From: a virus | Length of the DNA: 64,000 nucleotides | IMG/VR virus record: IMGVR_UViG_3300035180_001452 | Location: 32,001 to 96,000 of that record | Direction: 5' to 3' (one strand) | Shown here: one piece after another, positions 7,658-64,000 of the stretch | Layout: each line of letters begins with the position of its first letter | How positions within the stretch are numbered: the first letter of the stretch is position 1 | Translations under genes and position numbers: made by a program | The notes under the pieces: generated by a model | Told to the model about the DNA's origin: nothing | Database searches by the model: none | Seen by the model: the letters and a program-made list of their open reading frames with translations, nothing else

Positions 7658-10600
7658 CTACCTCAACAGCTTTTTTGCTATTTTATTAGCTTCTTGTTTA
7701 GTAATCTTTCTTCTATCATTAGAAATGACATGGCTTTTATCTGAGGCTCCAGTAGAATGCATATCTATAGCAGCATGAACCGCATTTACTATTTCATTAG
7801 GATCTACGTTACTATCTACAACACCCTTTATTCTTCCATGTATTGATTTGTGTATAGGAACTTCCTTTCGTACTACTCTATTATCCATCTTGGGCTCATT
7901 GATTTGGTCGTCTTCTGTCAATATACTAGGAGCTGACTTACGTATGCCAATACGAGAAGACATGACTCCTAGAGTAAGTAGAGCCCCTCCTATGGCTAGT
8001 ACGCCTGAACCCTTAAGTAATCCTCGTAGTTTATTTCCTAAATTATCCATACTTGATGGCATTATTCCAGAAATAAATTTACCAAAGTCTTCTGCCTTAC
8101 CAGAATTTATTATCCATGCCTGACCCACAGCATTAGCAGACCTAGCAACAGATGGCCCCTTTGGTGCGCTATTCGCTATTGCAGCATTGGCTGCAGCAAC
8201 TGTAGCCTTAGCAACTGACGGACCGTTTTGAGTACTATTTGCTACAGCAGCACTAGCTATATTAGCCGCACCTTTATTGACAGTACCACCTACAGCAGTT
8301 CTAGTTGCTTTAGCTGTAGCTTTAGTAGCTGCTCTACCCACAGCATTACCGCCTATTGAAGTCGGTGCTCCACCAACCGCTCTTGGTTCAGCGTTACCAA
8401 AATACCTATGTACTGCTTCATAAAACATATTATTAGTATAGCTACTTTTATCTAACTCTTCTAATATTTTATCTTTTGCTTTACTTGCTAGAAGATCTCT
8501 TAGGTAGTATGACTTTCCTCCAAGAGGTACGATAGCTTCTCCAATATTTCTGGTAATACCGTTAACTTCTACTGGCTGTATACTACCTTTTGTTATTCCT
8601 TTAATAGATTCAGACATATCTTGCCAATTAAGTACTCTTTTTATTTCCTGTCTTTGTATGTCTGTAAGAAATCCACCATTAGCTCCATATCTAGATTCTT
8701 CAATATCTCTTATTAGTATCTTAGCAAGCTGTGTTTGTCCCTTAGCTCCATGAATTGATACCACCTGTCTTGGTGTTAGGTTAAGAACTGATGGTGCGTA
8801 TTCTCCAGACATAAAAGCATTAGGTATCTCTAAGCTAGAAAGTCTAAGACCTGCTTGTCTAAGTTCAGGATTGGCTTTATACATAGCTTCTTCTTCGCTA
8901 CGTATCATTTTGCTTAGCTCTGCAGGATCGTGTATTCTTTTCTGGAAGTTATTTAGGTAATCGAGCATTATACTTCTATTAACAGCTCTGCTTTTATATC
9001 CTCTTTGTTCTATTCCTTTCCACCAAAGAACTCCCTCAAACTCATTGTTAAGAGACGGGTTCGTAGCAAGCTGCTTCTCCATATTTGTCTGCATATAGCT
9101 TCTTATACCAAACGCTAAATTTCTAGTTGCGTCCATTCCAAGCTCAAGAGACACATTGTCAGGTACACCAGCAGCTTTTCTAATTAGATCTACTACACTC
9201 TTCCCTTCAAACTTAAAGTTGTTTTCTATTAGATGTCTTGATAAAATTTCCCTATATGCTACTTGATTATTTCTAAATACTCCTCCGTTCTCAAAGAACC
9301 CAATTAGGTCTTGTTCATTAGCAACTTTTCCTAGGGCTGTTCTCATTATTCCTAAAGCTTTACCGGGATCGTTTTCGTGTGCTCTATAGAAAGTTCTGAG
9401 TACGAATTCTTCGATGCCATACTTAGTAAGCTGTGGAGTTGCTAGTCTTATTCTATATGAGTTAGTTATATCTGGAGTTATGGTCCATTCATGGAAAGGC
9501 TTTTGTGCTACCTCTTTCGCAAAATTAAACAAAGCCCCTTCAGTATTCTGTGCTCCATATACCTCTTTCCAACGAAGCCTGATTAAGTGCTGGGCCTGCT
9601 CTGCATTTATACTACCAGCTTTCATTTCTTTATCTATTAGATTAAAGAATGGTCTATCATATATTTTATATTGGTTATTAAACCAATCTAAACCAGATCT
9701 ATACTGTCTACGTATTCTAGGGTCCTTAAGAAACTGCGTATCAATCCACTTTAGTCTTTCTCTAAGCTCTGGGCTATCACTACTTTCTACGTACTGTGCA
9801 AAAGCATCTCTGGTAACCTTAAGTTTTTCTTCTGGAACTTCGGCCAGTTTCATCTTCCATTCAATATCTTCAAACCCAAACTTACCAGTTCCACTCCTTT
9901 CACCAGACAGTATCTCATGTATTCTTCTATTAAATAGATCTTTAGCAATTCTATCTTCTTCTTTTGCTACTTGTGTAGTATTAAGATTAGCTTCCCTAAG
10001 ATTTTGTAGAACTGTAGATAGCTGCAGAGCATCTTCTGCAAATACTGTTCTTCTAGTGGTAGTATTTGCGTCTACTAGATCTACAGCCCACTGTTCACCC
10101 CCGGTACTTGGATCTATGCCTTTTCTAATACTTTCTACAGCTAGCATTCTATTGCTAATATCTACTGGAATGTTATTACCATACGGGTCTCTCATTCTAG
10201 TGGGGTGGCCATATAGTATTTTATCTTTAAACTCTTCTGCAGATAACTGATGCCACTTGCTAATATCAACTTTTAGATAGTCATTAACTCCCGCTTCCAT
10301 AACCTTAGCAGTTAATAAAGCATCTTCTGCACCGGTGTGAGACTGTGCTCCTTTTAGTATGCCTCTTCTTGCTGCTGCGGTAGATAAAGCCTGGAAGCCA
10401 CCTTCAGGAGCTATAGCAGACTCAAGGAACATCACGTTTATAGCTCTATTTTTATTAGCTTCTACAAACGTATTATAGGCTTTCTCCATCTCTGCTAGTC
10501 TTTTAACTAGTTGTGCAGCCTCAGGAGTTGTAGGTACTTGAGATGCTCCTGCTGCCATTTCAGCTATTTCTGCTTTTATACGATCTTGATGCTTTTTAGC

Positions 10601-15571: not shown

Positions 15572-15829
15572 TTACTCAGTATCGTATAGGTCGCTAAGTG
15601 TAATCTTCATGCTACGTAGTCTAGCTCTTCTACTTGGTAGAGGTCTGGAAGCAGCCCTCTGTAATAAGATATTTTTCCTTAGATTTTCTACGGCTTTTCT
15701 GGTTTCTTGATAAGAAGGCCTAGTAGACGGTTCCGTCTTTTCTGCTGATTCTTGTATAGGCTTTTTCCACGGTCTAGGAACCTTTTTATTAACTAGCTTG
15801 TGTAACCTATCAGCTCTTCCTCTTCTCAA
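15572..15829 (-). CDS. Small basic hypothetical protein
   Basis: 85 aa, Arg/Lys-rich, GGAG SD before TTG. Confidence 0.55.
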   Translation of the reverse strand: MRRGRADRLHKLVNKKVPRPWKKPIQESAEKTEPSTRPSYQETRKAVENLRKNILLQRAASRPLPSRRARLRSMKITLSDLYDTE

Positions 15830-51495: not shown

Positions 51496-52122
51496 CTAAA
51501 TACGGGACACTTCTATCTTATTATGGCACAAACTACGTATGTCCCACAAGGCTGATTTAGGAGTCACCCAGCATATGTCTCTTCGGAGTTTAATCCCCGG
51601 TACACTCTCAGCAGCTTCATAATGTTTATTATTGATACTACCTAGTTTTAAGAATTCCTTTACAGGTAACCATCCAAGGAATTTTATGTCTTGGAATGTG
51701 TACCCTTGAATTATTACCGGGTGAGTTTCTGATGGCGATGGGGTCGCATTCATACTAGGTACGGTGGTCTTACAGACTGTAGGTATTACCTGTACAGCTA
51801 CAACTACATCAGAGCTACTAGCATTATCTAAACAATCCTTAGGTATCCAAATGGATTTAGGTAGCGCTACTGATTTAACTATAAGTTTTCTACCGTCAGG
51901 TAGAACCCCGTCCGGTTTAGACCTATCTCCTCTCTTCCCATACAAGTTCCAATCCATAGTAGCGTTTAAATACTTTTGGCAAGCATACTCTGCATAAACC
52001 CCCATTACATGCTTTATTAAAGGTGGCCATCCTCTAGATATGGTCTGGTTAGTTTTTGGTTTATTCCTTTTAATCGCCATATCTACACAGAATTTAATAT
52101 CTTCTTCTGTAAACTCAATCAT
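51496..52122 (-). CDS. PD-(D/E)XK nuclease-fold protein
   Basis: GVYAEYAC...PDGVL.DG...IVKS. Confidence 0.45.
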   Translation of the reverse strand: MIEFTEEDIKFCVDMAIKRNKPKTNQTISRGWPPLIKHVMGVYAEYACQKYLNATMDWNLYGKRGDRSKPDGVLPDGRKLIVKSVALPKSIWIPKDCLDNASSSDVVVAVQVIPTVCKTTVPSMNATPSPSETHPVIIQGYTFQDIKFLGWLPVKEFLKLGSINNKHYEAAESVPGIKLRRDICWVTPKSALWDIRSLCHNKIEVSRI

Positions 52123-52288
52123 TAATATATCCTTGTTTATTACACGGACTAGGTCTTACTAAACTCTACATTATTATGGCACACTCAGATTATCTTGTAT
52201 AGCAGGGTTTAGCATAAATACGGACATAGTTTATCAGGCCAGAAACCAATCCTGCCTCTAGGTACTATATTACCTAGATGATCTAGGG

Positions 52289-52329
52289 GGTGTGTCTCAA
52301 ATTTACCCACGGTAAGTTTGAGATGTGCC
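52289..52329 (+). promoter_or_regulatory. 19-bp leader hairpin at start of the plus-strand array
   Basis: GGTGTGTCTCAAATTTACC-CAC-GGTAAGTTTGAGATGTGCC, fully paired only if five G-U pairs are allowed. Confidence 0.7.
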
Positions 52330-52377
52330 AGCGAGTGCTCTGGGGACATGAGCCCCTGCACTCAGAAAGGTAAGAGA

Positions 52378-52725
52378 ATGTCCAAGGTTAAGGAGTGGTT
52401 GGAGAAGCTTGCGGGGCTTTTGGCCCCAAAGGCGAGGATCGTGGAGAGCACGGCTACCGGTGACGATCAGACCGGCATCGTCACTGTCGCCCTTATCCAG
52501 GGCGATGCGCGCATCGAGATGGCGGTCAGCTATGACCGCCAGAATTTCCGGGTTGGCTTCTCCGTCAAGAAGGCGGAGGGCTACCCGGTCTCTTCTGGAA
52601 GCGTTACCTTCGAGAACAACTGGTACGAGGTTCATCTCGAGAATATTCTCGAGATGAAGTTCAAAAGTGCATCGATGATCCCGTGGGGGATCATCGGGGC
52701 TGAGATCGAGAAGGCTATCAGGTAG
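52378..52725 (+). CDS. Cassette protein, family 1
   Basis: ATG after repeat B and SD; C-terminal SMIPWGIIGAEIEKAIR. Confidence 0.8.
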   Translation: MSKVKEWLEKLAGLLAPKARIVESTATGDDQTGIVTVALIQGDARIEMAVSYDRQNFRVGFSVKKAEGYPVSSGSVTFENNWYEVHLENILEMKFKSASMIPWGIIGAEIEKAIR

Positions 52726-52820
52726 CCTTCTCGATCACCAAGGAGGAGGGGCTAACGCCCCTCCTTCTTGGGCTGAGTGCTTAGGGGACATGAGCCCCTG
52801 CACTCGGAAAGGAAAAGGAA

Positions 52821-53186
52821 ATGGAGTTGAAGATTGAGAAGTTTCTGCGCCTGGTGACGGGGCTTCTCCTGCCCCCCGACACGGTCTGTGTCGAGGAGAC
52901 CGTGCTCGGTACTGACGAGTCGGGCATCGTGGGGTACATGTTCCAGATTGGCGAGGTCAACCTGGACGTTGCACTCACGAACAACCGGGACGAGTGGACG
53001 TTCACCCTTGATACTATCAAGGGAGGTCGGAAGATCCTGATGGTCACCGTCTTGTACCAGCACGCGTGGTACAGCATGTCTATCCGGGCCAAGGACGTGG
53101 AGACGACCCGGAAGTTCCGGGATGCCTCGAGCATTCCCTGGGACGAGGTCGGGAAGGAGATCGGCAAGGCCCTCTCTGACATCTAG
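52821..53186 (+). CDS. Cassette protein, family 1
   Basis: RKFRDASSIPWDEVGKEIGKAL; paralog of 55329. Confidence 0.82.
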   Translation: MELKIEKFLRLVTGLLLPPDTVCVEETVLGTDESGIVGYMFQIGEVNLDVALTNNRDEWTFTLDTIKGGRKILMVTVLYQHAWYSMSIRAKDVETTRKFRDASSIPWDEVGKEIGKALSDI

Positions 53187-53279
53187 AGAGGGCCTGGGCC
53201 TAAGGAGGAGGGGCTAACGCCCCTCCTTCTTGGGCTGAGCCAGAAGAATGTACCTCTGGCTTGGGAGGAGGTGAATAAA

Positions 53280-53417
53280 ATGGTGGGCCTCGTTGTGGTG
53301 GTAGTAGTTGTGGCGGGCCTGGTTAAGCTCCTCGAGTCGGTTCGTGAGGAGCAAAACCGTGCCCTCACCTTCTCCTTTATGGAGATCATGAAGGAGGAGA
53401 AGGAGGAGGAGAAGTAA
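53280..53417 (+). CDS. 45-aa membrane peptide (not in ORF track)
   Basis: SD GGAGGTGA; MVGLVVVVVVVAGLVKLL...MKEEKEEEK. Confidence 0.75.
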   Translation: MVGLVVVVVVVAGLVKLLESVREEQNRALTFSFMEIMKEEKEEEK

Positions 53418-53514
53418 TTCTCCTCCTCCAGCCTAAGGAGGAGGGGCTAACGCCCCTCCTTCTTGGGCTGAGTGTTTAGAGGACATGAGCCTCTGCACTC
53501 AGAAAGGTAGGAAG

Positions 53515-53982
53515 ATGAAGCCTAGCAAGAAGATCCTTGCTGGGTTCCAGGTCCTCTTTGGATCTGGGATCCAGCAGGGGGTGACCCCAGAAGTTTGGGT
53601 CACTACCAGCAAGCGGACTTTTAAGATGGTCCGCTGTGACATCGGAACCCCCGTTGTGGGGGTCATCACCCGCAGCGGCTGGCAGGTTGCCGCTATCCAG
53701 TCCGAGGAGAAGTATGTCTGGCTCGCTCCTGGCGAGAGCGAGCCAAGGATCGGGTCTCTCGTCAAGCTCCTTCAGGAGTTCTTGAAGGATAAGGGTGATG
53801 GCGTGTTCGACATCATCCTTGCCTTCAAGAAGGAGGTCGAGGAGACCAAGGCTAGCAAGAAGGATGATGAGACCTTTATCGACCTGCTTTATAAGCAGGC
53901 CGAGATGGTCTCCTCAACCATCTCGAGCACGTACTCCAGCGTGGTGGAGTACGTTACCAACATCCCCAAGATTTTCTCGTAG
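53515..53982 (+). CDS. Cassette protein, family 2
   Basis: LAGFQVLFG...GW...VWLAP.ESEP; paralog of 56946 and 58831. Confidence 0.82.
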   Translation: MKPSKKILAGFQVLFGSGIQQGVTPEVWVTTSKRTFKMVRCDIGTPVVGVITRSGWQVAAIQSEEKYVWLAPGESEPRIGSLVKLLQEFLKDKGDGVFDIILAFKKEVEETKASKKDDETFIDLLYKQAEMVSSTISSTYSSVVEYVTNIPKIFS

Positions 53983-54067
53983 GGGATGTTGGTAGCCTGA
54001 GGAGGAGGGGCTAACGCCCCTCCTTCTTAGGCTGAGTGTTTAGAGGACACGAGCCTCTGCACTCAGA

Positions 54068-54205
54068 AAGGCAGTGCAATGACTTGACTGCCTTGGATCG
54101 CTGATCGCTAGGCTAGTTAATGCTTTAGGGGCAGTATTAACTAGCTAGAGTGCAGCCTTGGTATTAAAGTGTGGCTGCAATAGGGCTAACGCCCTTCCTT
54201 TTTAT
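54068..54205 (+). ncRNA. Element C copy 1: ~140-nt structured non-coding unit (ncRNA or promoter module)
   Basis: Stems AAGGCAGT/ACTGCCTT, CTAGTTAATGCT/AGTATTAACTAG, TGCAGCC/GGCTGCA and AGGGC-TAAC-GCCCT, then TCCTTTTT. Confidence 0.55.
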
Positions 54206-54255
54206 GCTGAGTGCTTAGAGGACATGAGCCTCTGCACTCAGAAAGGAAGAAGAAG

Positions 54256-54666
54256 ATGAAGTTGTTGATCCGGCTGTTCACGATGTATCTTGACTTCCTC
54301 CTTAAGAATTCAATGGAGGTAGTTAAGATGGAGGTAGTGGGCGGTAGCTTTGACATCGATTCCGTTCAGGATGGTGTCAGGCTCTCTGTTTCTGCAAAGC
54401 TTACCCAGGAAGGTATGCTTTTGCAGTATGTGTTGGGTTTTAAGGAAAGATACCTAGTAACGACACGTTTGGCAGGTAATAGTGGATATGGACATAAGTC
54501 AATGGTGGCAAGGAAGCCACATGAGAAGAGAAAGATCCGTCTGGAGAGTCGGCTCCTCCAGACGGAGGATGAGGTCGTTCGGTTCCTCCAGCCAGGGGGA
54601 ACCGATGAGGTTTCCGTTGAGGATGCTATGAAGATTCATAGCATCCTTATCTGGCTGGATGAGTAG
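54256..54666 (+). CDS. Cassette protein, family 3
   Basis: MKLLIRLF...LQTEDEVVRFLQP; paralog of 56422. Confidence 0.82.
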   Translation: MKLLIRLFTMYLDFLLKNSMEVVKMEVVGGSFDIDSVQDGVRLSVSAKLTQEGMLLQYVLGFKERYLVTTRLAGNSGYGHKSMVARKPHEKRKIRLESRLLQTEDEVVRFLQPGGTDEVSVEDAMKIHSILIWLDE

Positions 54667-54763
54667 TTTCGACCAGCCAGCTTGAGAGGGAGGGGCTAAC
54701 GCCCCTCCTTCTTGGGCTGAGCACTCTGGGGACATGAGCCCCTGTGCTTGAAAGGAGACAGCG

Positions 54764-55183
54764 ATGCTATATGCTATCGCTGAGGCGTACCGAAGCATCT
54801 TCGGTGCGCCCGTCCACGAGACAATCGTGGACGGTATCCTCCACCAGGCTTTTCTGGTGGGGGATGGTGTGGTGGAGCTTTCGTTCCACCATACCATGGA
54901 CAAGATGATGATGTCTATGGTCTTGTCCATTGTTCCGGCCTCGGTCGAGGTCGGATATGATGTTATCCTCAAGGACAACATCGTGACTTTCCGTCTTGCC
55001 CTTTCCAAGGGCGAGCTTGACTCTGAGGAAGTTGCGCTTAGCGCGCAGCTTCCTTGTGGGGTGCACCCCATCAAGGTGTTCCTTCCTGGGAAGGAGGGAC
55101 CTGTTCCCTCCTTCCTCAACCTCAGTGAGGAGCAGCACATGCTCCTCAAGGAGTGGACTAAGAAGTTGATGGGGAGCATGTAG
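54764..55183 (+). CDS. Cassette protein, singleton
   Basis: SD AAGGAG after a B variant. Confidence 0.78.
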   Translation: MLYAIAEAYRSIFGAPVHETIVDGILHQAFLVGDGVVELSFHHTMDKMMMSMVLSIVPASVEVGYDVILKDNIVTFRLALSKGELDSEEVALSAQLPCGVHPIKVFLPGKEGPVPSFLNLSEEQHMLLKEWTKKLMGSM

Positions 55184-55328
55184 TGGTTTTGTATTACCGG
55201 GAAATGAGCTCACATCCCGGTAATACAGACGTAGCTAACTACTAGACTAAGGAGGAGGGGCTAACGCCCCTCCTTCTTGGTCTGAGTGCTTAGGGGACAT
55301 GAGCCCCTGCACTTGGAAGGAGAAGGAA

Positions 55329-55649
55329 ATGGAGTTGAATATCGAGCAGATGATGTACAATCTGATTGCGGCCCTGCTTCCCGGAAACATTTCCGGGATC
55401 GATCGGACGCTCCAGATCAATGTCAAGACCATTGATTTGGCGCTCGGAGAGTTCGGTCTCGAGGGGATGCTTACTCTGGAAATCGTTGAGAATGACAACA
55501 AGCTCGTTAAGGTTGTTATTCGATACGAGGAGGGTGAGTACACTCTTGGCATCCGGACCAAGGAGATGCATACGATCCGGAAGTTCCGGGATATCTCGGT
55601 GATCCCCTGGAACACCATCACGGATGAGATCGAGGAGGCTATCAAGTAG
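55329..55649 (+). CDS. Cassette protein, family 1
   Basis: RKFRDISVIPWNTITDEIEEAIK. Confidence 0.82.
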   Translation: MELNIEQMMYNLIAALLPGNISGIDRTLQINVKTIDLALGEFGLEGMLTLEIVENDNKLVKVVIRYEEGEYTLGIRTKEMHTIRKFRDISVIPWNTITDEIEEAIK

Positions 55650-55741
55650 CCTTCTCGACCCCTAAGGAGGAGGGGCTAACGCCCCTCCTTCTTGGGCTGA
55701 GCCAGAAGAATGTATCTCTGGCTGGAGAGGAGGTGAATAAG

Positions 55742-55900
55742 ATGGATGTTCTCGCTGCTCTTCTGTCAGTCGTGGTTTTCGTAGCAGTAATGCTACGAGT
55801 ACTCGGCTGTGCTCAGGAGGAGCATAAGCGGGTGATTACCAGCTCCTTCATCGAGGTTTGCAAGGCGATGAGGGAGGCGGAGGAGGCGGAGGAGAAATAA
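55742..55900 (+). CDS. 52-aa membrane peptide (not in ORF track), paralog of 53280
   Basis: SD GGAGGTGA; MDVLAALLSVVVFVAVML...EAEEK. Confidence 0.75.
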   Translation: MDVLAALLSVVVFVAVMLRVLGCAQEEHKRVITSSFIEVCKAMREAEEAEEK

Positions 55901-55991
55901 TCTCCTCTAGCCTGAGGAGGAGGGGCTAACGCCCCTCCTTCTTGGGCTGAGCCAGAAGAATGTACCTCTGGCTGGAGAGGAGGTGAATAAG

Positions 55992-56147
55992 ATGACCGTC
56001 AAGATTTTCGATGGCTTTAATGCCGTGGTCGATGATGATGGCACCATCATCGGGTTCTATACGGACCCGGGTGTTCTCATCGACCTTTGCCTTGACGAGG
56101 CTAATAATATTATTGGCTTCGTCAAGGCCAAGGAGGAGGAGAAGTAA
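55992..56147 (+). CDS. 51-aa acidic peptide (not in ORF track)
   Basis: SD GGAGGTGA; MTVKIFDGFNAVVDDDG...KAKEEEK. Confidence 0.72.
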   Translation: MTVKIFDGFNAVVDDDGTIIGFYTDPGVLIDLCLDEANNIIGFVKAKEEEK

Positions 56148-56233
56148 TTCTCCTCCTCCAGCCTGAGGAGGAGGGGCTAACGCCCCTCCTTCTTGGGCTG
56201 AGTGTTTAGAGGACACGAGCCTCTGCACTCAGA

Positions 56234-56371
56234 AAGGCAGTGCAATGACTTGACTGCCTTGGATTGCTAGTTGCCAAGCTAGTTAATGCTAAGGGGCTAG
56301 TATTAACTAGCTTGAGTGCAGCCCTAGTACTAACGTGTGGCTGCAATAGGGCTAACGCCCTTCCTTTTTAT
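56234..56371 (+). ncRNA. Element C copy 2
   Basis: Same four stems; outer pair changed to CAAGCTAG/CTAGCTTG. Confidence 0.55.
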
Positions 56372-56421
56372 ACTGAGTGCTTAGAGGACATGAGCCTCTG
56401 CACTCAGAAAGGAAGAAGAAG

Positions 56422-56847
56422 ATGAAGCTGTTGGTCCGGCTGTTCGTGATGTACTTGGATTTTCTCCGCAGCGGCTTCGCGGAGGTTACCAAGCTTGAAG
56501 CTGGTGAGGAGGGCTTCAAGCTCGAGGCGGTGGATGCTTACGGAGGGATTGTTCTTACGACCTCTTTTGAGGTCGTTCCGACAGGGGTTGTCCTTCAGTA
56601 TGTTCTTCTTTACGAATCGCGCAACTATCTCATAACAACGCGATTCGTTGGGAATGACGGATGGTCGTTCAAGTCAATGACGGCAACAAAGTCAAATCCG
56701 TCTGAGACTAGAAAGATCCGTCTAGAGACTCGCACCCTCCAGACGGAGGATGAGGTCGTTCGGTTCCTTCAACCAGAAGGGACCGATGAGGTTTCTGTCG
56801 AGGATGCTATGAAGATTCATAGCATTCTCGCGTGGCTGGTCGAGTAG
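56422..56847 (+). CDS. Cassette protein, family 3
   Basis: Paralog of 54256. Confidence 0.82.
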   Translation: MKLLVRLFVMYLDFLRSGFAEVTKLEAGEEGFKLEAVDAYGGIVLTTSFEVVPTGVVLQYVLLYESRNYLITTRFVGNDGWSFKSMTATKSNPSETRKIRLETRTLQTEDEVVRFLQPEGTDEVSVEDAMKIHSILAWLVE

Positions 56848-56945
56848 TTTCGACCAGCCAGCCTAAGGAGGAGGGGCTAACGCCCCTCCTTCTTGGGCTG
56901 AGTGTTTAGAGGACATGAGCCTCTGCACTCAGAAAGGGGAGGCAT

Positions 56946-57398
56946 ATGACGCCTCGCGAGAAGTACCTCGCGGGGTTCCAGGTCCTCTTTGGACCTGGAA
57001 TTCCACGGGGTGTCACCCCCGAGGTCCGCATTGCCGTTGGTAAGCGGACCAGCACGATGGTGCGATGCACCATCGGGACCCCCATTGTGGGGGTCATCGT
57101 CCGCGAGGGCTGGATGGTCGCAAAGATCCAGCCTGAGGAGAAGTATGTCTGGCTCGCTCCTAATGAGAGCGAGCCAAGCGTTGGTTCTCTCACTCAGCTC
57201 CTTCAGGGGTTCCTGAAGGACAAGGGGTGCGTGTTCGATCTCCTTCTTGAGTTCAAGAAGGAGATCGAGGAGTCCAAGGAGGATGTCACCTTCCTTGACT
57301 TGATGTACAAGCAGCTCGAGATGGTTGGTGATACCATCTCGAGCACGTACTCCACTATGCTGGAGTACGTTACCAACATCCCCAAGATTTTCTCGTAG
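56946..57398 (+). CDS. Cassette protein, family 2
   Basis: Paralog of 53515; SD GGGGAGG. Confidence 0.82.
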   Translation: MTPREKYLAGFQVLFGPGIPRGVTPEVRIAVGKRTSTMVRCTIGTPIVGVIVREGWMVAKIQPEEKYVWLAPNESEPSVGSLTQLLQGFLKDKGCVFDLLLEFKKEIEESKEDVTFLDLMYKQLEMVGDTISSTYSTMLEYVTNIPKIFS

Positions 57399-57524
57399 GG
57401 GATGTTGGTAGCCTGAGGAGGAGGGGCTAACGCCCCTCCTTCTTGGGCTGAGGAGATATTAGTATCTCCTCTTATTACTTTGGTATTACCGGGAATGTGA
57501 GACACTCTCCGGTAATAAGAAAGG

Positions 57525-57660
57525 AGTGGTAGAATGACTTGACTACCTAGTGACATCCGTAGCTAGGCTAGTTAATGCTAGGGGGCTAGTATTAACTAGC
57601 CAGAATGCAGCCCTAGTATTAACGTGTGGCTGCAATAGGGCTAACGCCCTTCCTTTTTAT
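57525..57660 (+). ncRNA. Element C copy 3 (first stem diverged)
   Basis: ATGACTTGACT...CTAGTTAATGCTA/TAGTATTAACTAG...GTGTGGCTGCAATAGGGCTAACGCCCTTCCTTTTT. Confidence 0.5.
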
Positions 57661-57710
57661 ACTGAGTGTTTAGAGGACATGAGCCTCTGCACTCAGAAAG
57701 GCAGGAGAAG

Positions 57711-58079
57711 ATGAAGTTTGACGTTGTGGAAATGCTGGCATGGTTTGCCAGCATGTTGGGCGTATCCGCTGATACGTCCAACATCGAGACCGGGATCTCT
57801 TCTCGGTCTAAGTATGCCTCCATCGATAAGACTATCGATGGGATTGCCTTCTCAATGAAGGCATCAGTGGCTCTGGACGGAGAGTGGTGTATTCTCGGCA
57901 TGGTGGCCGAGAACAAGGAGGGTAGCTGTGCTACCCTCTCGGTCTGTGTCGACCGTGACGTTACGGTCGGGATGGAGGATGGCAATGGTGTTTACACCGT
58001 TGCCATCTACGAGTCGGCTGCTGATGTTCCGTGGGAGGATATCAGCGACAAGGCTAACAAGGTCATCTCTAGCCTGTAG
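57711..58079 (+). CDS. Cassette protein, family 1-related
   Basis: MKFDVVEMLAWFA...ADVPWEDISDKANKVI. Confidence 0.8.
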   Translation: MKFDVVEMLAWFASMLGVSADTSNIETGISSRSKYASIDKTIDGIAFSMKASVALDGEWCILGMVAENKEGSCATLSVCVDRDVTVGMEDGNGVYTVAIYESAADVPWEDISDKANKVISSL

Positions 58080-58176
58080 AGGTGGCTTTGGCCTGAGGAG
58101 GAGGGGCTAACGCCCCTCCTTCTTAGGCTGAGTGTTTAGAGGACATGAGCCTCTGCACTCAGAAAGGCAGGAGAAG

Positions 58177-58560
58177 ATGATGTTTGATGTTGTGGAGATG
58201 CTGGCATGGTTTGCTGGCATTCTCCTGCCTGACGCGTACTACCGCGCGTCAGGCGTGGCAACCGGTAAGTCTGATGATTCTTGCTACGCTGAGACTGGTT
58301 ATCTCAGCAGCAAGAATAGCGGACTTGCGATCGGTGTGAAGTGCACCTCCTCGTTCGACAATAGCTGGTGGATTCTCGGCTTGGTAGCCGAGAATCTGGA
58401 TGGGGAGTTCTTCACGCTGTCCCTGTCATTTGACAGGGGGACTGTCACGTACTCGGTGGAGGATAAGGGGCTTTATTCCTCCTATGAGTATGACAACATC
58501 ACTGATGTTCAGTGGGATGTTGTCATTAATGAGACCATTAAGGCCCTCTCTAGGATGTAG
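58177..58560 (+). CDS. Cassette protein, family 1-related
   Basis: MMFDVVEMLAWFA...TDVQWDVVINETIKAL; tandem paralog of 57711. Confidence 0.8.
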   Translation: MMFDVVEMLAWFAGILLPDAYYRASGVATGKSDDSCYAETGYLSSKNSGLAIGVKCTSSFDNSWWILGLVAENLDGEFFTLSLSFDRGTVTYSVEDKGLYSSYEYDNITDVQWDVVINETIKALSRM

Positions 58561-58644
58561 AGAGGGCCTGAGCCTGAGGAGGAGGGGCTAACGCCCCTCC
58601 TTCTTGGGCTGAGTGTTTAGAGGACATGAGCCTCTGCACTCAAG

Positions 58645-58782
58645 GAGGCAGTGCAATGACTTGACTGCCTTGGATTGCTAGTTGTTAAGCTAGTTAATAC
58701 TTTAGGGGCAGTATTAACTAGCTAGAATGCGGTTCTAGTGTTAAAGTGTGGCTGCAATAGGGCTAACGCCCTTCCTTTTTAT
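58645..58782 (+). ncRNA. Element C copy 4
   Basis: Same architecture; third stem TGCGGTT/GGCTGCA retained through G-U pairs. Confidence 0.5.
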
Positions 58783-58830
58783 ACTGAGCATTCTGGGGAC
58801 ATGAGCCCCTGTGCTTGAAAGGGGAGGCAT

Positions 58831-59223
58831 ATGACGCCTCGCGAGAAGTATCTTGCGGGATTCTGGGCGTTGTTTGAGCCCGTAATTCCCGCAGCCCTCC
58901 GGACGGTAGTCCGGAGGACCGTCCGGCTTAGTAAAAGCCGTCAAACGTTTGAGACTGCTCTCGTAGTAGTCTCAATCGAAGTCGGTGGGCGAACCCTTAG
59001 GATGGTTCGACAGCCGATCAAGGACTCCCAAACGGGAGTCCTTGCGAGCAGTGGCTGGAAGATCGCTTGGGTTTTCCAGCCAGATCCAGAGAATGGAACG
59101 TATGTTCCATTTCCCGAGGGCCGGTGCGTTTGGCTGGCCCCGGGATCCGACCAGCCCAAGATCGGGTTGGTCGGGGACCTTCTCCGGGAGGCGTACGGAC
59201 TCCCGGAGAGGATCAACCGGTAG
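58831..59223 (+). CDS. Cassette protein, family 2 (divergent)
   Basis: MTPREKYLAGF...SGWKIA...VWLAPGSDQPKIG. Confidence 0.8.
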   Translation: MTPREKYLAGFWALFEPVIPAALRTVVRRTVRLSKSRQTFETALVVVSIEVGGRTLRMVRQPIKDSQTGVLASSGWKIAWVFQPDPENGTYVPFPEGRCVWLAPGSDQPKIGLVGDLLREAYGLPERINR

Positions 59224-59349
59224 CTTTGTATAAGGAGGAGAAGGCTAGTATTTTCTCCTCCTTATACTACGACTGGTGATTTTTTTACCGGGAGGTGTGT
59301 TCCGTCAGCTTATGCGTAAGTATAGGCTCGGATCACATCTCCCGGTAGA

Positions 59350-59491
59350 AAGGCAAAAGTAAAAATGACCTGACTACCTATTGGTAGCTGGCGCTAGATT
59401 AGTTAATACTTTAGGGGTAGTATTAACTATCTAGTGTATAGCTCTAATATTAAGGTGTGGCTGCAATAGGGCTAACGCCCTTCCTTTTTAT
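59350..59491 (+). ncRNA. Element C copy 5 (most diverged)
   Basis: CTAGATTAGTTAATACT/AGTATTAACTATCTAG; identical 3' end. Confidence 0.5.
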
Positions 59492-59540
59492 ATTGAGTGC
59501 TTAGAGGACATGAGCCTCTGCACTCAGAAAGGAGATGTAG

Positions 59541-59945
59541 ATGATTGCGGGTGTCTTGGTCGGGCTCATCGAGCAGCTGCTGCTCGGTGACTTCAGCATC
59601 TTAGGGCGGTATGTGCTTGGTAACCCTAAGATGCACGAGTGCTGTCACAAGACATTGGTTGTTGATGGTGCCGCTGTGTTGGTCACCGTTGCCGTGTCCG
59701 GTTTTGGTCACGGTATCGTGACCGTCTCCTCTAGCTCCTCTAGCGGTACCTATGGTGCTCGGTCTGTGGAGGTAGTGGGCATCATGGGACTCCCGGATCA
59801 TACCTGGGCCGTCAACGGGCATACCGTTGATGGTGGGAGGCTGATCTCAGTGGAGGAGGTCGTTGGAAAGGTTGGTGTTGGTGGAAGCTTCGCGTGGAAG
59901 GGCGTATGCAAGGAGGTGGTGGACCTCTACCTTAAGTTGAGGTAG
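59541..59945 (+). CDS. Cassette protein, singleton (Val/Gly-rich)
   Basis: SD AAGGAG after repeat B; ends in a stop-codon hairpin. Confidence 0.75.
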   Translation: MIAGVLVGLIEQLLLGDFSILGRYVLGNPKMHECCHKTLVVDGAAVLVTVAVSGFGHGIVTVSSSSSSGTYGARSVEVVGIMGLPDHTWAVNGHTVDGGRLISVEEVVGKVGVGGSFAWKGVCKEVVDLYLKLR

Positions 59946-60578
59946 AGGTCCAGCCTGAGGAGGAGGGGCTAATGCCCCTCCTTCTTGGGCTGTCTGAGGG
60001 CTAAAAGTTTGTTACTACTCTCTGACAAATGTCTACATGTTTAGGGGCTAACGCCCCTCTTTTTAGTGCTGGGGTATAGTACTATACCCTAGGAGGATGT
60101 TACATGGTACGTCCAGATGGCATCCGATTCGGGGCCTTCGGCCCCTGTTGCTATGCCGGGCATACCATGACGGCAATCTTCTTTACTACAAAGACTACCG
60201 GTAGGGTGCAATCCTGCCTGTACTTTTAGTAATAGCCTATACTCAAGTAAACAGTACCGGGAAGTGTGCACACTCTCCGGTATATCAGTCATAGCTACGC
60301 TATGGTATCAGTAGCAGCTACACTAGAGCTTTAGCCGGTAGGTTTCAGTCGCAGCTAGGCTATGATCTTTTGGTGAAAGTGGCCACCATAGGGCAAAAAG
60401 TGCCACATTTTTGGGCCGAAAATGGACAAAAATGGGCCAAAACATGGATGGGTACTTTTGGGGCTATGGGAGCCACTTATCCAATAGCCTATAGCTACTT
60501 TACCTGGGTAAACAATACTCACCCTGCGGTAAGGGTGTTTACATATAGTGCACAGTTGGTAGACTACCAGAGAGGAGG

Positions 60579-61016
60579 ATGGATATGGTAGTCAGAGTCC
60601 TCTTGGGGAGGACGACAAACCCCAGGAGGGGGCTGGATACTACGGTCAAGTCAGGAAACGGACTTGGCCGTACGTTCGCTCCCTCCTGGGAGCTGGTCCT
60701 GGGATTCAAGAACTACCAGGACCAGCAGGCGGGCAGGGTAGCTCGCTTCCCAGGGTATAATCCTATATCCTGGGAAGAATACTCCCTTTTCTACCGGGAG
60801 ATGTTGAACAGTCTCCCGGTAGACGGTAAGGGGATCCCGTACGCTGTGCGGGATCTTTACAACTTCGGAAAGGAGCAGCCCGGTAACGTGCTGCTTCTAC
60901 GTTGCTACTGCTCGGTAGCAACCCCGTGCTGTCACAACCAGCTAATCATTGATTGGCTGGTTGGGAGGTGGCCGAAGGCCTTCGGCCTCCTCCAGGATAG
61001 CCTCCCCGGTATCTAG
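60579..61016 (+). CDS. DUF488-like protein
   Basis: FAPSWELV...ISWEEY..FY..ML...LLRCYC.....CH; SD GAGGAGG (start possibly 60585). Confidence 0.65.
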   Translation: MDMVVRVLLGRTTNPRRGLDTTVKSGNGLGRTFAPSWELVLGFKNYQDQQAGRVARFPGYNPISWEEYSLFYREMLNSLPVDGKGIPYAVRDLYNFGKEQPGNVLLLRCYCSVATPCCHNQLIIDWLVGRWPKAFGLLQDSLPGI

Positions 61017-61166
61017 TATATCGGGGAGAAAGCCAAGCAGGACGTGGTGCGTTCGATACTACGTCCTGCTTGGCACTACTCAAGTATACCATCGGAATAC
61101 CTTTTGCTCTGATCCTGATGGTGAAACTAGCCTTGCACATGAGAGCGAGGCAGAGAGGAGAGAGAA

Positions 61167-61847
61167 GTGAATAGTATGGATCGGGAAGAGGTGTGGCGTA
61201 CCTGCCCACCGTGGCTAAGAAACGCTGCCCTGGCTATAGCCAGGGGATATGACCACGGATGGTCGCGATCGACAGCCGTTCCGTCAGCTCCTTACTTTTG
61301 GGAGTATGACGACCCATTTCCTTCTCTCAGTGAGATTGAAGAAGGGACACCAGAGGGACCCCTTGGCAAGGGGATCACACAGCCTGATATCTCGTTCGAA
61401 GATGGGCGATACTTTGCCCGACATAGAACGGGAACTGGTAGGGTCTTTATAGAAGTTGCGGTAGACCCTACGAATGATTGTGACCTTTCTTATACGGTCA
61501 TTGTCTCCAGACCCAGTGGAGAAATCGCCTCTGGTACCAAGGTTGGTAATGAGGTATACGTGACTGCAGATCGGGCAGTTTGGGGGACTCGCCATGAGGA
61601 CGCTTGGGAGAAGGCGTGGAAAGCTCTTGGGATTCCTGCTCCCAAGTTCCCCAGCAAGGTTCTTAGGACCATTGAGAAGAACCTTGTTGTAGATGGTAAG
61701 GGACTGAAAGTCGATCCCTTGCGCTGTAGGGTTACGGTACTCCCTACAGCAGTGCTCTCAGTAGAGGACCTTCTAAGCCTTAGGAGGGCTGAGAAGGTCG
61801 AGATAGTTGATATTGTCGGTCAGAGCTATGACCTCACTATCAGCTGA
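61167..61847 (+). CDS. Hypothetical protein, tandem paralog 1
   Basis: Clearly similar to 61897-62568 throughout (APYFWEYDD..PSL.EIEEGTPEGPLGKGIT). Confidence 0.82.
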   Translation: MNSMDREEVWRTCPPWLRNAALAIARGYDHGWSRSTAVPSAPYFWEYDDPFPSLSEIEEGTPEGPLGKGITQPDISFEDGRYFARHRTGTGRVFIEVAVDPTNDCDLSYTVIVSRPSGEIASGTKVGNEVYVTADRAVWGTRHEDAWEKAWKALGIPAPKFPSKVLRTIEKNLVVDGKGLKVDPLRCRVTVLPTAVLSVEDLLSLRRAEKVEIVDIVGQSYDLTIS

Positions 61848-61896
61848 AGTCGTAACAGCCTTGCACATGAGAGCGAGGCAGAGAGGAGAAAACAGC

Positions 61897-62568
61897 ATGA
61901 GCCGGGAAGAGGTGTGGCAATCGATGCCGGTGTCTTTGCGGAATACTGCGCTGGGAATCGCCCGTGCCTATGGGCACGGGTGGGCGTGGTCAACAGTAGT
62001 GCCAGCTGCTCCCTACTTTTGGGAGTACGATGACGTTGTTCCTTCCCTCGAGGAAATCGAGGAAGGAACACCGGAGGGTCCCCTCGGGAAGGGGATCACT
62101 GGGCCAGATATATCGTTCAGGGATGGACGATACTTCGTCTTCCATAAGACTGGGACCGGTAGAGTCACTATCGAGGTCTCAGTGGATCCAGTATCAGATC
62201 CGGGGACAACCTACGAGGTAGTAGTATCCCGCCCCAATGGGGATAGCGCGGTCGGTATTCGGGATGGGAAGAGAACCGAGGATAACGTACGGACGTTCGC
62301 GGATTGGTCCATCTGGGGAATTCGCCACGAGAACGCCTGGAAGAAGGCGTGGGTGGCTCTCGGGATTCCTGCTCCCGAGTTCCCTGGAAAGCTCCTTGAG
62401 AAGGAGCTTGTTGTGAGTGGAAACCTGGAGGGTGATCCTCTGTACTCCAAGGTTAAGATCCTCCCCAAATCGGTTCTTTCTGTGGAGGATCTTTTGCGGC
62501 TCAGAAGGGCTGCATCGGTAGAGATAGTTGATGAGGTAGGGCAGGTCTACCCCCTGATCATCGGGTAG
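61897..62568 (+). CDS. Hypothetical protein, tandem paralog 2
   Basis: ATG behind the same leader and GAGGAG SD. Confidence 0.82.
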   Translation: MSREEVWQSMPVSLRNTALGIARAYGHGWAWSTVVPAAPYFWEYDDVVPSLEEIEEGTPEGPLGKGITGPDISFRDGRYFVFHKTGTGRVTIEVSVDPVSDPGTTYEVVVSRPNGDSAVGIRDGKRTEDNVRTFADWSIWGIRHENAWKKAWVALGIPAPEFPGKLLEKELVVSGNLEGDPLYSKVKILPKSVLSVEDLLRLRRAASVEIVDEVGQVYPLIIG

Positions 62569-62670
62569 AACCGCCACAGAGGAGAGGGAGATCACACCCT
62601 CCCTCTCTTCTGAATACAGGATCTAGGTGTGAACAACACCCCCCGCGCCTAGCGGGGAAAGGAGAGAACA

Positions 62671-63384
62671 GTGGGATTTCTGAAGATCGCTGAGCTGCCC
62701 GAATGGGCAGTATCAGCAGTACGATCCATGGTGGATCGGAGCATTGACCGAAGGGTTTTTGTACTTTCCGGGGATGAGATCCTCGGAAAGGTCGAGGAAG
62801 ACGAATATGCAGTACCAGGCAGTCCGAGTCTGTCTGGTACGATCTCCCTGATGACTGGGGAGGTCTTGGAGTTTAACAACTCCCCGGTGTATCTAGCCAC
62901 GCAACTGGAGCGTGGCTCCCGTGGTATTAATCCTGTCTGCCGGGCAATCGTGCATTGCCCGGTGTCCGAAACCCCTGCGCGGTTTGCTATCGTGCAGGGG
63001 CGCTTTGGAGCGTTCCCCGCTACCATGGGGATACGTTCCAAAAGCGTTGTAGAGTTGATCGAGGCGAAACCCGCCTCGATCCCAAAGCTCGCTCAGGCTC
63101 GAGGTCTTGATGTTAAGGAACTCGAGGAGCGAGTTGCATTCCTCCGCTCCTACGCTGTTAAGAGCGGAGATTTTTGGAACTGGAGAGGCGTCCGCCTCTC
63201 TAACAGTTCCTCTTCTATTCTTGCACAGCTCGGAAATGCTGTGCAGGGAATCTCCATTGTGTCGAGGGATGGGACTGAGTACCCATTCCTCGCCCCGGTC
63301 AACGCCACATCCGTCACCGCCTCCCCGTTCGAGGCGGTTACTCCGCTTGCAGTTTCCGTTACAGTTCCGGAGGTTATCGGATAA
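62671..63384 (+). CDS. Hypothetical protein
   Basis: SD AAGGAG preceded by CCCCGC/GCGGGG hairpin. Confidence 0.75.
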   Translation: MGFLKIAELPEWAVSAVRSMVDRSIDRRVFVLSGDEILGKVEEDEYAVPGSPSLSGTISLMTGEVLEFNNSPVYLATQLERGSRGINPVCRAIVHCPVSETPARFAIVQGRFGAFPATMGIRSKSVVELIEAKPASIPKLAQARGLDVKELEERVAFLRSYAVKSGDFWNWRGVRLSNSSSSILAQLGNAVQGISIVSRDGTEYPFLAPVNATSVTASPFEAVTPLAVSVTVPEVIG

Positions 63385-63412
63385 CCTCCAGTACAGCTAG
63401 AGGGAGGTGCTC

Positions 63413-64000
63413 ATGGATGAGCATCTCCCTCCATTCTCACTACGTTGTACGTTGAAGGAGAATGGGATGAAGGCTGTCTTTGTACAGCAGCCTCGGCTGC
63501 TGGAAAGGGTTGGAAACGTGTTCACCGTGCGGGTGGACACGGATATGACGGGGACCGTTCTCCACCAGGTGTCGCATCCGGAAGAGCAGCCTGTTTTCAG
63601 GCTGCTTGGCAGCCGCATTAAAGTACCGGATCTTCGGGCATTCTACATGCCCGAGCGGACACTTTGGAACGCGAATGGTGTTAGAGGCACTATTCGCGTG
63701 GTAGACTTACCGGAACCGCTTCGCATCATCGATTCGGTGATAGGCGATGCGAAGAATGGTAAGAACTCTGCCTTTAGGGCAGACTCTATGCTCCCGTACA
63801 TCTCTAGGATGTTGCAAGTCGAGGTGTCCCATACCCAGGTAAATGCGCCTGGGATTATGGGCTTCGCGATGGGAGCTGACGGGCAGCTCTCTAGCCGGGA
63901 AGTTGCAATATCCTCCAGAATGGCGGTACGGCTTCTTAGGGTCATTTCCACCCTGCACTGGGACTGGGTGGAATGGCTGGTAAGCCGTACCCCGGAACCT
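63413..64000 (+). CDS. Hypothetical protein (partial, runs off window end)
   Basis: SD GGAGGTG, MDEHLPPFSLRC..., open to the end of the window. Confidence 0.7.
   Translation, partial: MDEHLPPFSLRCTLKENGMKAVFVQQPRLLERVGNVFTVRVDTDMTGTVLHQVSHPEEQPVFRLLGSRIKVPDLRAFYMPERTLWNANGVRGTIRVVDLPEPLRIIDSVIGDAKNGKNSAFRADSMLPYISRMLQVEVSHTQVNAPGIMGFAMGADGQLSSREVAISSRMAVRLLRVISTLHWDWVEWLVSRTPEP

Follow-up and report, generated by a model that had tools for sequence, protein, structure and literature searches.

Qrr1-5 and the csRNAs are multicopy sibling small RNAs. LhrC1-5 of Listeria are paralogous hairpin RNAs of ~100-130 nucleotides (nt) that end in a terminator with a U-tract and repeat a short motif in their loops, and their multiple copies are considered a matter of dosage or redundancy (PMC4132741, PMC5880928). 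Here, we describe a comparable locus in a large, uncultivated myovirus known from metagenomes of microbial mats, sediment and hot springs. The stretch analyzed (the window) is 64,000 nt long and corresponds to bases 32001-96000 of the 122,380-nt IMG/VR record IMGVR_UViG_3300035180_001452. A GC-rich island of small genes within it houses five copies, all on the plus strand, of a ~130-140-nt element that we call element C. Judged by architecture, C comes closest to sibling small RNAs that end in an intrinsic terminator, LhrC1-5 among them. Unlike the Listeria RNAs, C is phage-encoded, sits in a cassette of the type used for protein genes and carries a conserved two-codon open reading frame (ORF), and its loops are G-rich or AU-rich, whereas those of LhrC-type sibling RNAs are C/U-rich. 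That C is a structured small RNA family without earlier description appears to us most likely; the fuller proposal, that its copies are five paralogous structured small-RNA genes of a new sibling family, each its own unit and acting in trans by dosage, we favor tentatively and would not yet call probable.

The copies were located by three methods. A repeat search returned a five-copy, 169-nt family beginning at 54078, 56244, 57533, 58655 and 59364, with 78-100% identity to the reference copy. BLAST of copy 3 against the whole record found the same five plus-strand places, no sixth full copy and no resemblance to a coding sequence of the record. A covariance model made from the nine sequences introduced below gave exactly five full-length matches in the record, at 133-169 bits, the next-best score being 28.6 bits on a hairpin of the type called A below. 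An earlier inspection of the DNA made without database searches (the sequence-only reading) had placed five copies in this region, and its positions were confirmed by all three methods. The copies lie 709-2166 nt apart and are dispersed, not tandem.

Each copy has the same layout, with a 5′ hairpin and Shine-Dalgarno (SD) sequence followed by ATG-ACN-TGA, three hairpins and a short cUAACg hairpin with a U-tract. The surroundings are built in the same way. Element B, a hairpin with an SD sequence ahead of island ORFs, occurs in 15 copies, and element A, a long cUAACg hairpin after island ORFs, in 20, all on the plus strand. Between 52738 and 60058, A and B frame every small ORF; the A hairpin there reads GGAGGAGGGGC TAAC GCCCCTCCTTCTT and is extendable to ~16 base pairs (bp) using G-U pairs, and the B hairpin reads CTGAGTG..GGACATGAGCC..CACTCAG, followed by AAAGG. 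A variant B hairpin (GAGCCAGAAGAATGTACCTCTGGCT) stands ahead of three tiny ORFs. Copies 1, 2 and 4 of C are preceded by a normal A plus B cassette and then AAAGG or GGAGG, and copies 3 and 5 by another hairpin type (TACCGGGA...CCGGTA) and then AAAGG. Two more hairpins of the latter type, at 55195-55222 and 60255-60282 (family D19), are not followed by C. Downstream of every C there is a full B hairpin, an SD sequence and a protein gene. Since a complete 5′ hairpin with an SD sequence is thus present both before C and after its terminator, C is framed like a gene, and the gene-like slot proposed for it in the sequence-only reading holds. Every copy ends in AGGGC-TAAC-GCCCT plus TCCTTTTT, which agrees with the short A-type hairpin plus TCCTTTTT described there, and a terminator scan calls all five ends (five of five copies; a 5-pair stem with four G-C pairs, then TCCTTTTTAT).

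A search of the JGI (Joint Genome Institute) metagenomes with a DNA pattern made of A and B yielded four contigs (L004-L007), three of which contain C. Six C matches were found (two in L005, one in L006 and three in L007, one of them cut by the contig end), giving four new distinct sequences and nine in all. The alignment used for pair counts consisted of these nine, i.e., the five window copies and four contig sequences; L007 2232-2373, which is identical to L005 944-1085, and the 3′-truncated L007 2935-3052, which is identical to the first 118 nt of L005 241-382, were left out.

The nine sequences are described by a fold of four hairpins, whose helices occupy alignment columns 3-10/22-29 (P1), 46-59/68-81 (P2), 86-92/108-114 (P3) and 117-121/126-130 (P4). 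P1, present in seven of the nine, pairs the SD sequence and holds AUG-ACN-UGA in its apical part; the UGAC apical loop expected in copies 1, 2 and 4 appears in their folds. A poorly conserved linker of ~17 nt separates P1 from P2, the P2 loop contains GGGG, the 15-nt loop of P3 carries a second copy of AGUAUUAA(C), and P4 is a short hairpin followed by UCCUUUUU. The predicted RNA would be ~125-140 nt long when counted from the SD sequence and ~180 nt with the 5′ hairpin kept. Each window copy is more stable than its shuffled versions (z from -2.8 to -5.3; 0, 0, 0, 0 and 1 of 200 shuffles were as good), and the four-hairpin fold is the minimum-energy fold of seven of the nine sequences, in which it persists in silico to 65 C. 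The up to four stems seen in C on inspection alone are borne out.

Over the nine sequences, 93.5% of 306 cells (one per pair and sequence) are paired on the plus strand, as compared with 23-48% in controls with slid partners; by helix, the share is 79% for P1, 96.8% for P2, 98.4% for P3 and 100% for P4. None of 500 shuffles matched the paired share, and two matched the covariation score. Three pairs vary on both sides and nine on one side only, the latter giving G-U wobbles (three in P1, two in P2 and four in P3). On these counts P3 tells the most. C-to-U or A-to-G changes on its 5′ arm affect four of the seven pairs and leave G-U pairing in place, one change is compensatory, and the single disruptive change, an A-C in copy 5, is an A-U in a related contig. 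The mirror structure on the minus strand is paired in 87.6% of cells; P3 there reaches 85.7% instead of 98.4%, and P2 90.5% instead of 96.8%. The minus strand pairs less because the changes are G-U wobbles on the plus strand. The asymmetry therefore indicates that the constraint acts on the plus strand as a single strand, as it would for an RNA read in the direction of the island genes.

This asymmetry bears on whether C is a site in DNA, with its three GTTAATRCT/AGTATTAAC motifs serving as an operator or as iterons, or with a promoter or recombination site inside the element. The P2 arms do make up an inverted repeat of 12 bp, and a third half-site lies 20-odd bases off; these arms are rich in AT within a GC-rich island, their sequence does not vary, as it could in a stem required for pairing only, and the cassettes shuffle between strains, with many joints at repeat elements. 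The P3 changes and the P2 G-U pair, however, keep pairing only on the plus strand; P1, P3, the terminator and the gene slot would be superfluous for such a site, and an origin or operator repeated fivefold with 140 nt of conserved context would be unusual. There is also no promoter-like site inside C. A σ70 consensus scan of the region returned seven sites against 6.3 +/- 2.0 expected, i.e., no excess, and none within the C copies, so that a σ70 promoter inside C was dropped as a candidate. We regard a DNA site as very improbable. A replication origin was also considered; the dispersal of the five copies and the strand-specific pairing argue against it.

Between strains, C can be compared slot by slot, since L005 and L007 carry C copies in the slots and order of window copies 3, 4 and 5. 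In copies 3, 4 and 5, C is identical at 98.6, 87.3 and 91.5% of positions, respectively, and the ORFs beside them at 88.6, 83.2 and 65.1%. Judging from these figures, C is conserved better than the neighboring ORFs. The region upstream of copy 3 (57414-57520) is identical in L007 at 107 of 107 positions, and that upstream of copy 5 (59224-59351) at 126 of 128 (98.4%) in L005 and L007. These comparisons matter for the notion that C is a functionless gene remnant, a cassette cut down to its first codons and spread by segmental duplication. In keeping with it, the SD sequence and ATG have stayed in place, ATG ACG or ATG ACC also opens other genes of the island, and copies 1 and 2 belong to a duplicated stretch whose downstream genes are paralogues (families D2 and D9). 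Against it, C shows no less conservation than the ORFs around it, its fold is kept through wobble and compensatory changes, it is present in all five slots and in related contigs, and BLAST of copy 3 against the genome finds C copies only. We give decay hardly any credence.

Other searches for relatives brought little. Exact-pattern scans of IMG/VR with the P2 palindrome and with the P3-P4 junction returned no matches, and a scan with the A-hairpin pattern returned one contig, L003, from an unrelated low-GC phage. The gene adjoining the island, used as a query, gave no relative, and the portal gave two short contigs only, without the island. A protein-profile scan of the JGI metagenomes with the gene downstream of C produced no matches, nor did megablast of the region against GenBank phages. 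One distant relative, L010, was recognized through a polymerase-like protein (45% identity) and has the hairpin grammar of the island, namely a TAAC-loop hairpin, a second hairpin and an SD sequence. At L010 3000-8000 this grammar takes the form of GAGGGTC TAAC GACCCTC with a U-rich tail, a GTGGCG..CGCCAC hairpin and an SD sequence. Several structured non-coding gaps of 176-312 nt are seen in L010, among them two tandem terminator-plus-hairpin units at 7773-7917.

Table 1. Positions of element C, its parts and its 5′ hairpins in the window
Feature	Position	Strand	Remarks
Element C, copy 1	54066-54203	+	SD, mini-ORF, P1, linker, P2, P3, P4, U-tract; model score 167.0 bits
Element C, copy 2	56232-56369	+	Model score 169.4 bits
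Element C, copy 3	57521-57658	+	Model score 164.4 bits; 140/142 positions same as L007 counterpart
Element C, copy 4	58643-58780	+	Model score 165.5 bits
Element C, copy 5	59352-59489	+	Divergent subtype, without P1; model score 133.3 bits
Two-codon ORF, copy 1	54079-54087	+	ATG ACT TGA; 7 nt after AAAGG; apical part of P1
Two-codon ORF, copy 2	56245-56253	+	ATG ACT TGA
Two-codon ORF, copy 3	57534-57542	+	ATG ACT TGA
Two-codon ORF, copy 4	58656-58664	+	ATG ACT TGA
Two-codon ORF, copy 5	59365-59373	+	ATG ACC TGA
P2, copy 1	54111-54146	+	14-bp AU-rich hairpin CTAGTTAATGCT / AGTATTAACTAG, G-rich loop
P2, other copies	56277-56312, 57566-57601, 58688-58723, 59397-59432	+	Same alignment columns
P3, copy 1	54151-54179	+	7-bp stem; 15-nt loop with second AGTATTAA-like motif
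P3, other copies	56317-56345, 57606-57634, 58728-58756, 59437-59465	+	
P4 and U-tract, copy 1	54182-54203	+	AGGGC TAAC GCCCT TCCTTTTT; intrinsic-terminator-like
P4 and U-tract, copy 2	56348-56369	+	Terminator scan
P4 and U-tract, copy 3	57637-57658	+	Terminator scan
P4 and U-tract, copy 4	58759-58780	+	Terminator scan
P4 and U-tract, copy 5	59468-59489	+	Terminator scan
B hairpin upstream of copy 1	54032-54066	+	CTGAGTG...CACTCAG; family D5; same as before protein genes
B hairpin upstream of copies 2 and 4	56198-56232, 58609-58643	+	Family D5
Alternative 5′ hairpin upstream of copy 3	57487-57514	+	TACCGGGA...TCTCCGGTA
Long alternative 5′ hairpin upstream of copy 5	59286-59347	+	TACCGGGAGG...TCTCCCGGTA

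The ends of C raise the question of whether the element acts in cis, either as a terminator or insulator that closes early operons and shields mRNA from 3′ exonucleases, or as a leader or attenuator, where the mini-ORF and the alternative pairings would settle whether P4 terminates ahead of the following gene. In the region 52000-61000, the C ends make up five of the eight plus-strand sites found by the terminator consensus, and terminator-like sites are enriched there (18, counting both strands, as opposed to 8.1 +/- 2.3 in shuffles). Behind the stem of an ordinary A hairpin there is only UUCUU, and those bases can pair into the extended A stem. C most likely also supplies the clearest terminators of this early-type island. 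P4 is weak (5 bp), as is often the case in regulated terminators. HK022 put and lambda nut are phage RNA elements that modify termination. Attenuators with leader peptides share with C a short ORF, several hairpins that may pair in alternative ways and, ahead of a gene, an intrinsic terminator, which is the classical attenuator anatomy.

The alternative pairings seen on inspection exist. The motif CCCTAGTATTAAC at 57611-57623 is indeed complementary to GTTAATGCTAGGG, with one G-U pair, and the second downstream partner suggested for the TTAATRCT arm is real, the 8-bp core formed by TTAATRCT and the third-loop motif being pairable in 69 of 72 cells over the nine sequences, with changes of the wobble type. 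Likewise, GYYCU in columns 90-94 (P3, 5′ side) is able to form five of five pairs with the P4 5′ arm in all nine sequences. The proposed bistable attenuator nevertheless fares poorly. In the seven copies with a four-hairpin minimum, forcing the helix between the P2 arm and loop 3 costs from 3.4 (copy 3) to 15.9 kcal/mol, and the antiterminator-like pairing of columns 90-94 with the P4 arm costs 6.9-11.9 kcal/mol; bistability is unsupported because the alternative fold is energetically worse in these copies. P2 can close before loop 3 is transcribed, and a ribosome that halts at the UGA (columns 20-22) is still more than 20 nt away from P2 (column 46), short of the arm that would have to switch. 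A leader-peptide attenuator was therefore rejected, there being no antiterminator fold of comparable stability and the stop codon lying so far before P2. A complete B hairpin and SD sequence stand between P4 and the next gene, and another such element precedes C, an arrangement unlike that of a leader, and there is no Rfam leader match. As modeled, the loop-3 motif reads as a displayed second copy of the P2 3′-arm sequence rather than a switch. Neither termination nor 3′ protection needs an invariant P2 or a repeated loop motif, and a role of C confined to cis appears unlikely to us, if far from negligible; were C merely a terminator module, the finding would be an ordinary one.

The head of C can also be read as a two-codon minigene (Met-Thr-stop). 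Two-codon minigenes described before include mg2 of axe-txe, ATG-ACT-TAA, with ACT classed as a toxic last codon, and that of the LEE1 leader (PMC8708949), and the lambda bar minigenes are mentioned together with peptidyl-tRNA drop-off (PMC12487901). Like the head of C, they consist of an SD sequence, AUG, one sense codon and a stop, and mg2 shares the ACT (Thr) codon with C (PMC8708949). The described ones are single and lie in leaders or in transcripts of the attP region; the minigene of C occurs five times, heads a 100-nt conserved structured RNA, has a terminator of its own and has its SD sequence paired in P1 in most copies. In C, ATG-ACN-TGA stands at start-codon distance from the SD sequence (AAAGG, GGAGG or GGAG) in all nine distinct copies, at 7-8 nt in seven of them and at 11 nt in copy 5 and its counterpart. 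The 12-mer AATGACNTGACT is otherwise invariant, its sole variable base being the wobble position of the Thr codon (ACT in seven, ACC in one and ACA in one). On six-frame translation of the nine sequences, every frame is stopped in several copies except Met-Thr-stop. A longer ORF made through recoding of the TGA was rejected since the same frame soon hits TAG.

Translation of AUG-ACN-UGA in five copies might load or trap ribosomes or, as the lambda bar minigenes do, release peptidyl-tRNA, with the rest of C as a stable, terminated carrier. Known two-codon minigenes, ATG-ACT-TAA among them, are translated and affect expression (PMC8708949). On the other hand, SD-led two-codon ORFs are common by chance in the record (18 on the plus strand and 19 on the minus strand), and AATGACNTGACT could just as well be a tandem motif, TGACN-TGACT, in which the spacer base is free. 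P1 pairs the SD sequence in seven of the nine sequences, which argues for masking, not use. Different tRNAs decode the three Thr codons ACT, ACC and ACA, and hence trapping would not fall on any one tRNA. Such a minigene would also leave the conservation of P2 and P3 unexplained, and we consider this explanation improbable.

Comparison with known RNA families gave no match, although Rfam includes models for ToxI-type antitoxins, CRISPR repeats, tracrRNA and small self-cleaving ribozymes. A covariance search of the 64-kb window with Rfam 15 returned no hits at the gathering score; at E values up to 10, two rows in the region 52000-64000 touch C, both below threshold and regarded as noise (AniS, 21.8 bits against a threshold of 50, E = 5; Pospi_RY, 21 bits against 40, E = 4.8). 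ARAGORN found no tRNA or tmRNA genes in the window. Scans of the neighboring ORFs with Pfam, PHROGs and PADLOC revealed no recognizable toxin-like or Cas-like gene near C. A type III antitoxin RNA (ToxI-like) was rejected, as the copies are dispersed and not tandem and no neighboring ORF belongs to a family of these three collections; known small self-cleaving ribozymes were rejected in the absence of a match to any Rfam ribozyme family in C. The specific functions put forward in the sequence-only reading, namely antitoxin, ribozyme and decoy for a CRISPR system, thus found no positive evidence.

Of these functions, the last deserves separate consideration, either as a mimic of the repeat or as a mimic of the whole guide. 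The reported Cas9 inhibitor RNA rAcrIIA1 of ~111 nt consists of a crRNA-tracrRNA duplex and three stem-loops (bioRxiv 10.64898/2026.06.03.729762), and the layout of C, with its long duplex, stem-loops and terminator, recalls this guide mimic. C offers ~20 poorly conserved nt, a looped 14-bp duplex, two stem-loops and a U-tract, which is a similar architecture. RNA anti-CRISPRs (Racrs) act in a dose-dependent manner and form solitary repeat units, and what defines them is that they resemble a CRISPR repeat or tracrRNA (PMC10651486); C is dispersed in five copies, and no such likeness was found in comparisons with Rfam or with the repeat core of metagenome run X2 described below.

The phage appears to be under CRISPR attack. 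In run X2, a 33-nt piece of the island (54983-55015) is flanked on both sides by 27-28 nt of letters with a CCCCAC..GTGGGG palindrome, and a piece starting at 53919 carries the same palindrome-type letters on one listed side. The flanked pieces look like CRISPR spacers against the phage, and the letters like repeats of what we take to be a type I-E-like array. A 24-mer of the repeat-like motif had no exact match in the GTDB species genomes. The X2 palindrome core, however, has no matches in the window, no Rfam CRISPR-DR or tracrRNA model matches C, and the linkers are diverged versions of each other rather than unrelated spacers. In addition, usual CRISPR repeat hairpins are shorter than the perfect 14-bp stem of C. 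That C is a decoy for RNA-guided defense of the host seems to us quite improbable.

We return to the proposal of a sibling small-RNA family. The multicopy small RNA suggested in the sequence-only reading stands in its general form, which is the reading best supported by the wobble changes, the strand asymmetry, C's own terminator and the conservation; the antitoxin and CRISPR-decoy variants are unsupported. The copies, fold, strand, conservation and terminator-like ends, and the lack of any other conserved ORF, are matters of observation, and they include the generic marks of a small RNA, i.e., a conserved structure on one strand with structure-preserving changes, a G+C-rich hairpin with a U-tract, and no conserved coding frame. 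According to the proposal, C would be an RNA payload carried in the modular cassette by which the island also expresses its small protein genes. The RNA would be released as a discrete molecule and would work in trans by dosage, hence the five copies; the dose-dependent action of RNA anti-CRISPRs is a precedent for dosage (PMC10651486). Its invariant P2 duplex and exposed loop motifs would be offered to a partner of the host or the phage, and it might serve as a decoy or sponge or as a base-pairing regulator. The terminator would also close the transcription unit, and P1 together with the immediate stop codon may keep ribosomes from unfolding the RNA.

Several points weigh against this proposal. 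The release of C as a discrete RNA is something we infer from sequence and fold. No promoter was found for any cassette in the scan with a σ70-like consensus. The conserved SD-AUG-ACN-UGA could mean that translation matters, for which a purely non-coding reading has no need. Copy 5 and its counterpart have a minimum-energy fold without P1 and P3, with P2 extended to a long hairpin. Ten of the 14 pairs of P2 and all five of P4 are invariant, and covariation is thin because the sequences are few (nine), closely related and partly paralogues open to gene conversion. Conservation alone cannot prove a function of C. L010, which shares the cassette grammar, has no C homologue, the best model score in it being 18.6 bits on a terminator hairpin. 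Finally, an 11-mer complementarity search of the five copies against both strands of the phage record gave matches at chance level only; the longest, of 14 nt, lies at window 15787-15800, in an intergenic part of the late region, and is also close to chance by a rough estimate.

The completeness of the record is estimated at 79%, and the metagenome runs that contain the stretch are labeled microbial mat, sediment and hot springs. Up to ~52,200, the window is occupied by a minus-strand structural module of ~38% G+C, with genes for portal, large terminase and tail-sheath homologues and three ORFs of ~2,000-2,600 amino acids (aa). The latter lie at window 1-24153 and measure 1974+ aa (open-ended), 2604 aa and 2259 aa. 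Among named phages, those closest by portal (~35% identity) are Bacillus phages of the 0305phi8-36 type and a Moorella phage. At ~52,200 the G+C content rises to 52-60% and transcription switches to the plus strand; within the divergent junction at 52150-52350, the G+C content goes from ~0.37 to ~0.57 within 300 nt. The GC-rich island (0.52-0.55 G+C against ~0.39 in the phage) extends from window 52290 to ~66860, beyond the window end, which corresponds to ~84,200-98,900 of the genome, and its first 8 kb are an array of small ORFs in paralogous families. Such families within window 52378-59945 are 53515/56946/58831, 54256/56422, 57711/58177 and 52821/55329, and several island ORFs share, by eye, an N-terminal helix and a C-terminal IPW..I..EI motif.

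Searches with the small island proteins produced no match in Pfam, PHROGs or PADLOC, and nothing usable in PDB sequences or the protein Atlas. One homologue is named at its source 'exosome complex RNA-binding protein Rrp4', and the ORF at 55299-55649 has a sub-threshold match to the S1 domain; we do not build on either. From window 63413 (L009 3413-6860), two adjacent ORFs of 520 and ~630-647 aa follow. The 520-aa ORF carries a DCDGD motif (HQGDCDGDRIG), and its look-alikes in the protein Atlas carry PF05183 (RdRP) and Rpb1 domain 2 (feature score 0.95, 191 shared features), with a structural TM (template modeling) value of only 0.2-0.34. The pair has no Pfam, PHROGs, PDB-sequence or GenBank-phage match, and the two ORFs could possibly encode a split two-barrel RNA polymerase of the phage's own.

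Four metagenome runs were aligned, as DNA contigs that are fragmented at repeats. Over window 53500-59600 the contigs have many joints between distant cassettes at repeat elements, with skips and returns of 2-4 kb, and run X6 contains a chimeric C variant. The joints at repeats suggest shuffling of cassettes between strains. A host search with a degenerate pattern of the A and C terminators gave one match, in a Cyclobacteriaceae metagenome-assembled genome, which we take as chance. The cassette module probably comes from a thermophile.

The island is early-gene-like. Host-takeover modules of the SPO1 type, found in large virulent phages, consist of many small genes with their own expression signals, and start-associated sequences are known from mycobacteriophages. 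Like these early modules, the island has small, fast-evolving paralogous genes, stereotyped start signals and a hairpin after each stop; we know of no SPO1-type module in which an RNA payload takes gene slots five times. To our knowledge, the few small RNAs of phages that have been understood, namely RNA anti-CRISPRs, pseudo-antitoxins and base-pairing regulators, are tools of counter-defense or takeover. A bolder form of the proposal, which we hold to be distinctly unlikely, is that the C RNAs are an early, dosage-driven weapon, either a guide-RNA-like decoy or a hybrid with a ribosome-trapping Met-Thr minigene. As a decoy, the invariant duplex and the displayed AGUAUUAAC and GGGG loops would titrate an RNA-guided or RNA-binding defense or a housekeeping factor of the host, possibly as a guide-RNA-like mimic in the manner of rAcrIIA1, for another system.

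Five slots of a fast-evolving island are given to one structured RNA that is kept better than the surrounding proteins, which marks C as a well-defined candidate, cheap to synthesize, for a new phage function exerted by RNA. With its hairpin, hairpin, SD sequence and payload, the cassette grammar is a compact natural expression module. If C is indeed such a weapon, the phage would carry RNA payloads as interchangeable cassettes beside the protein payloads of its takeover array.

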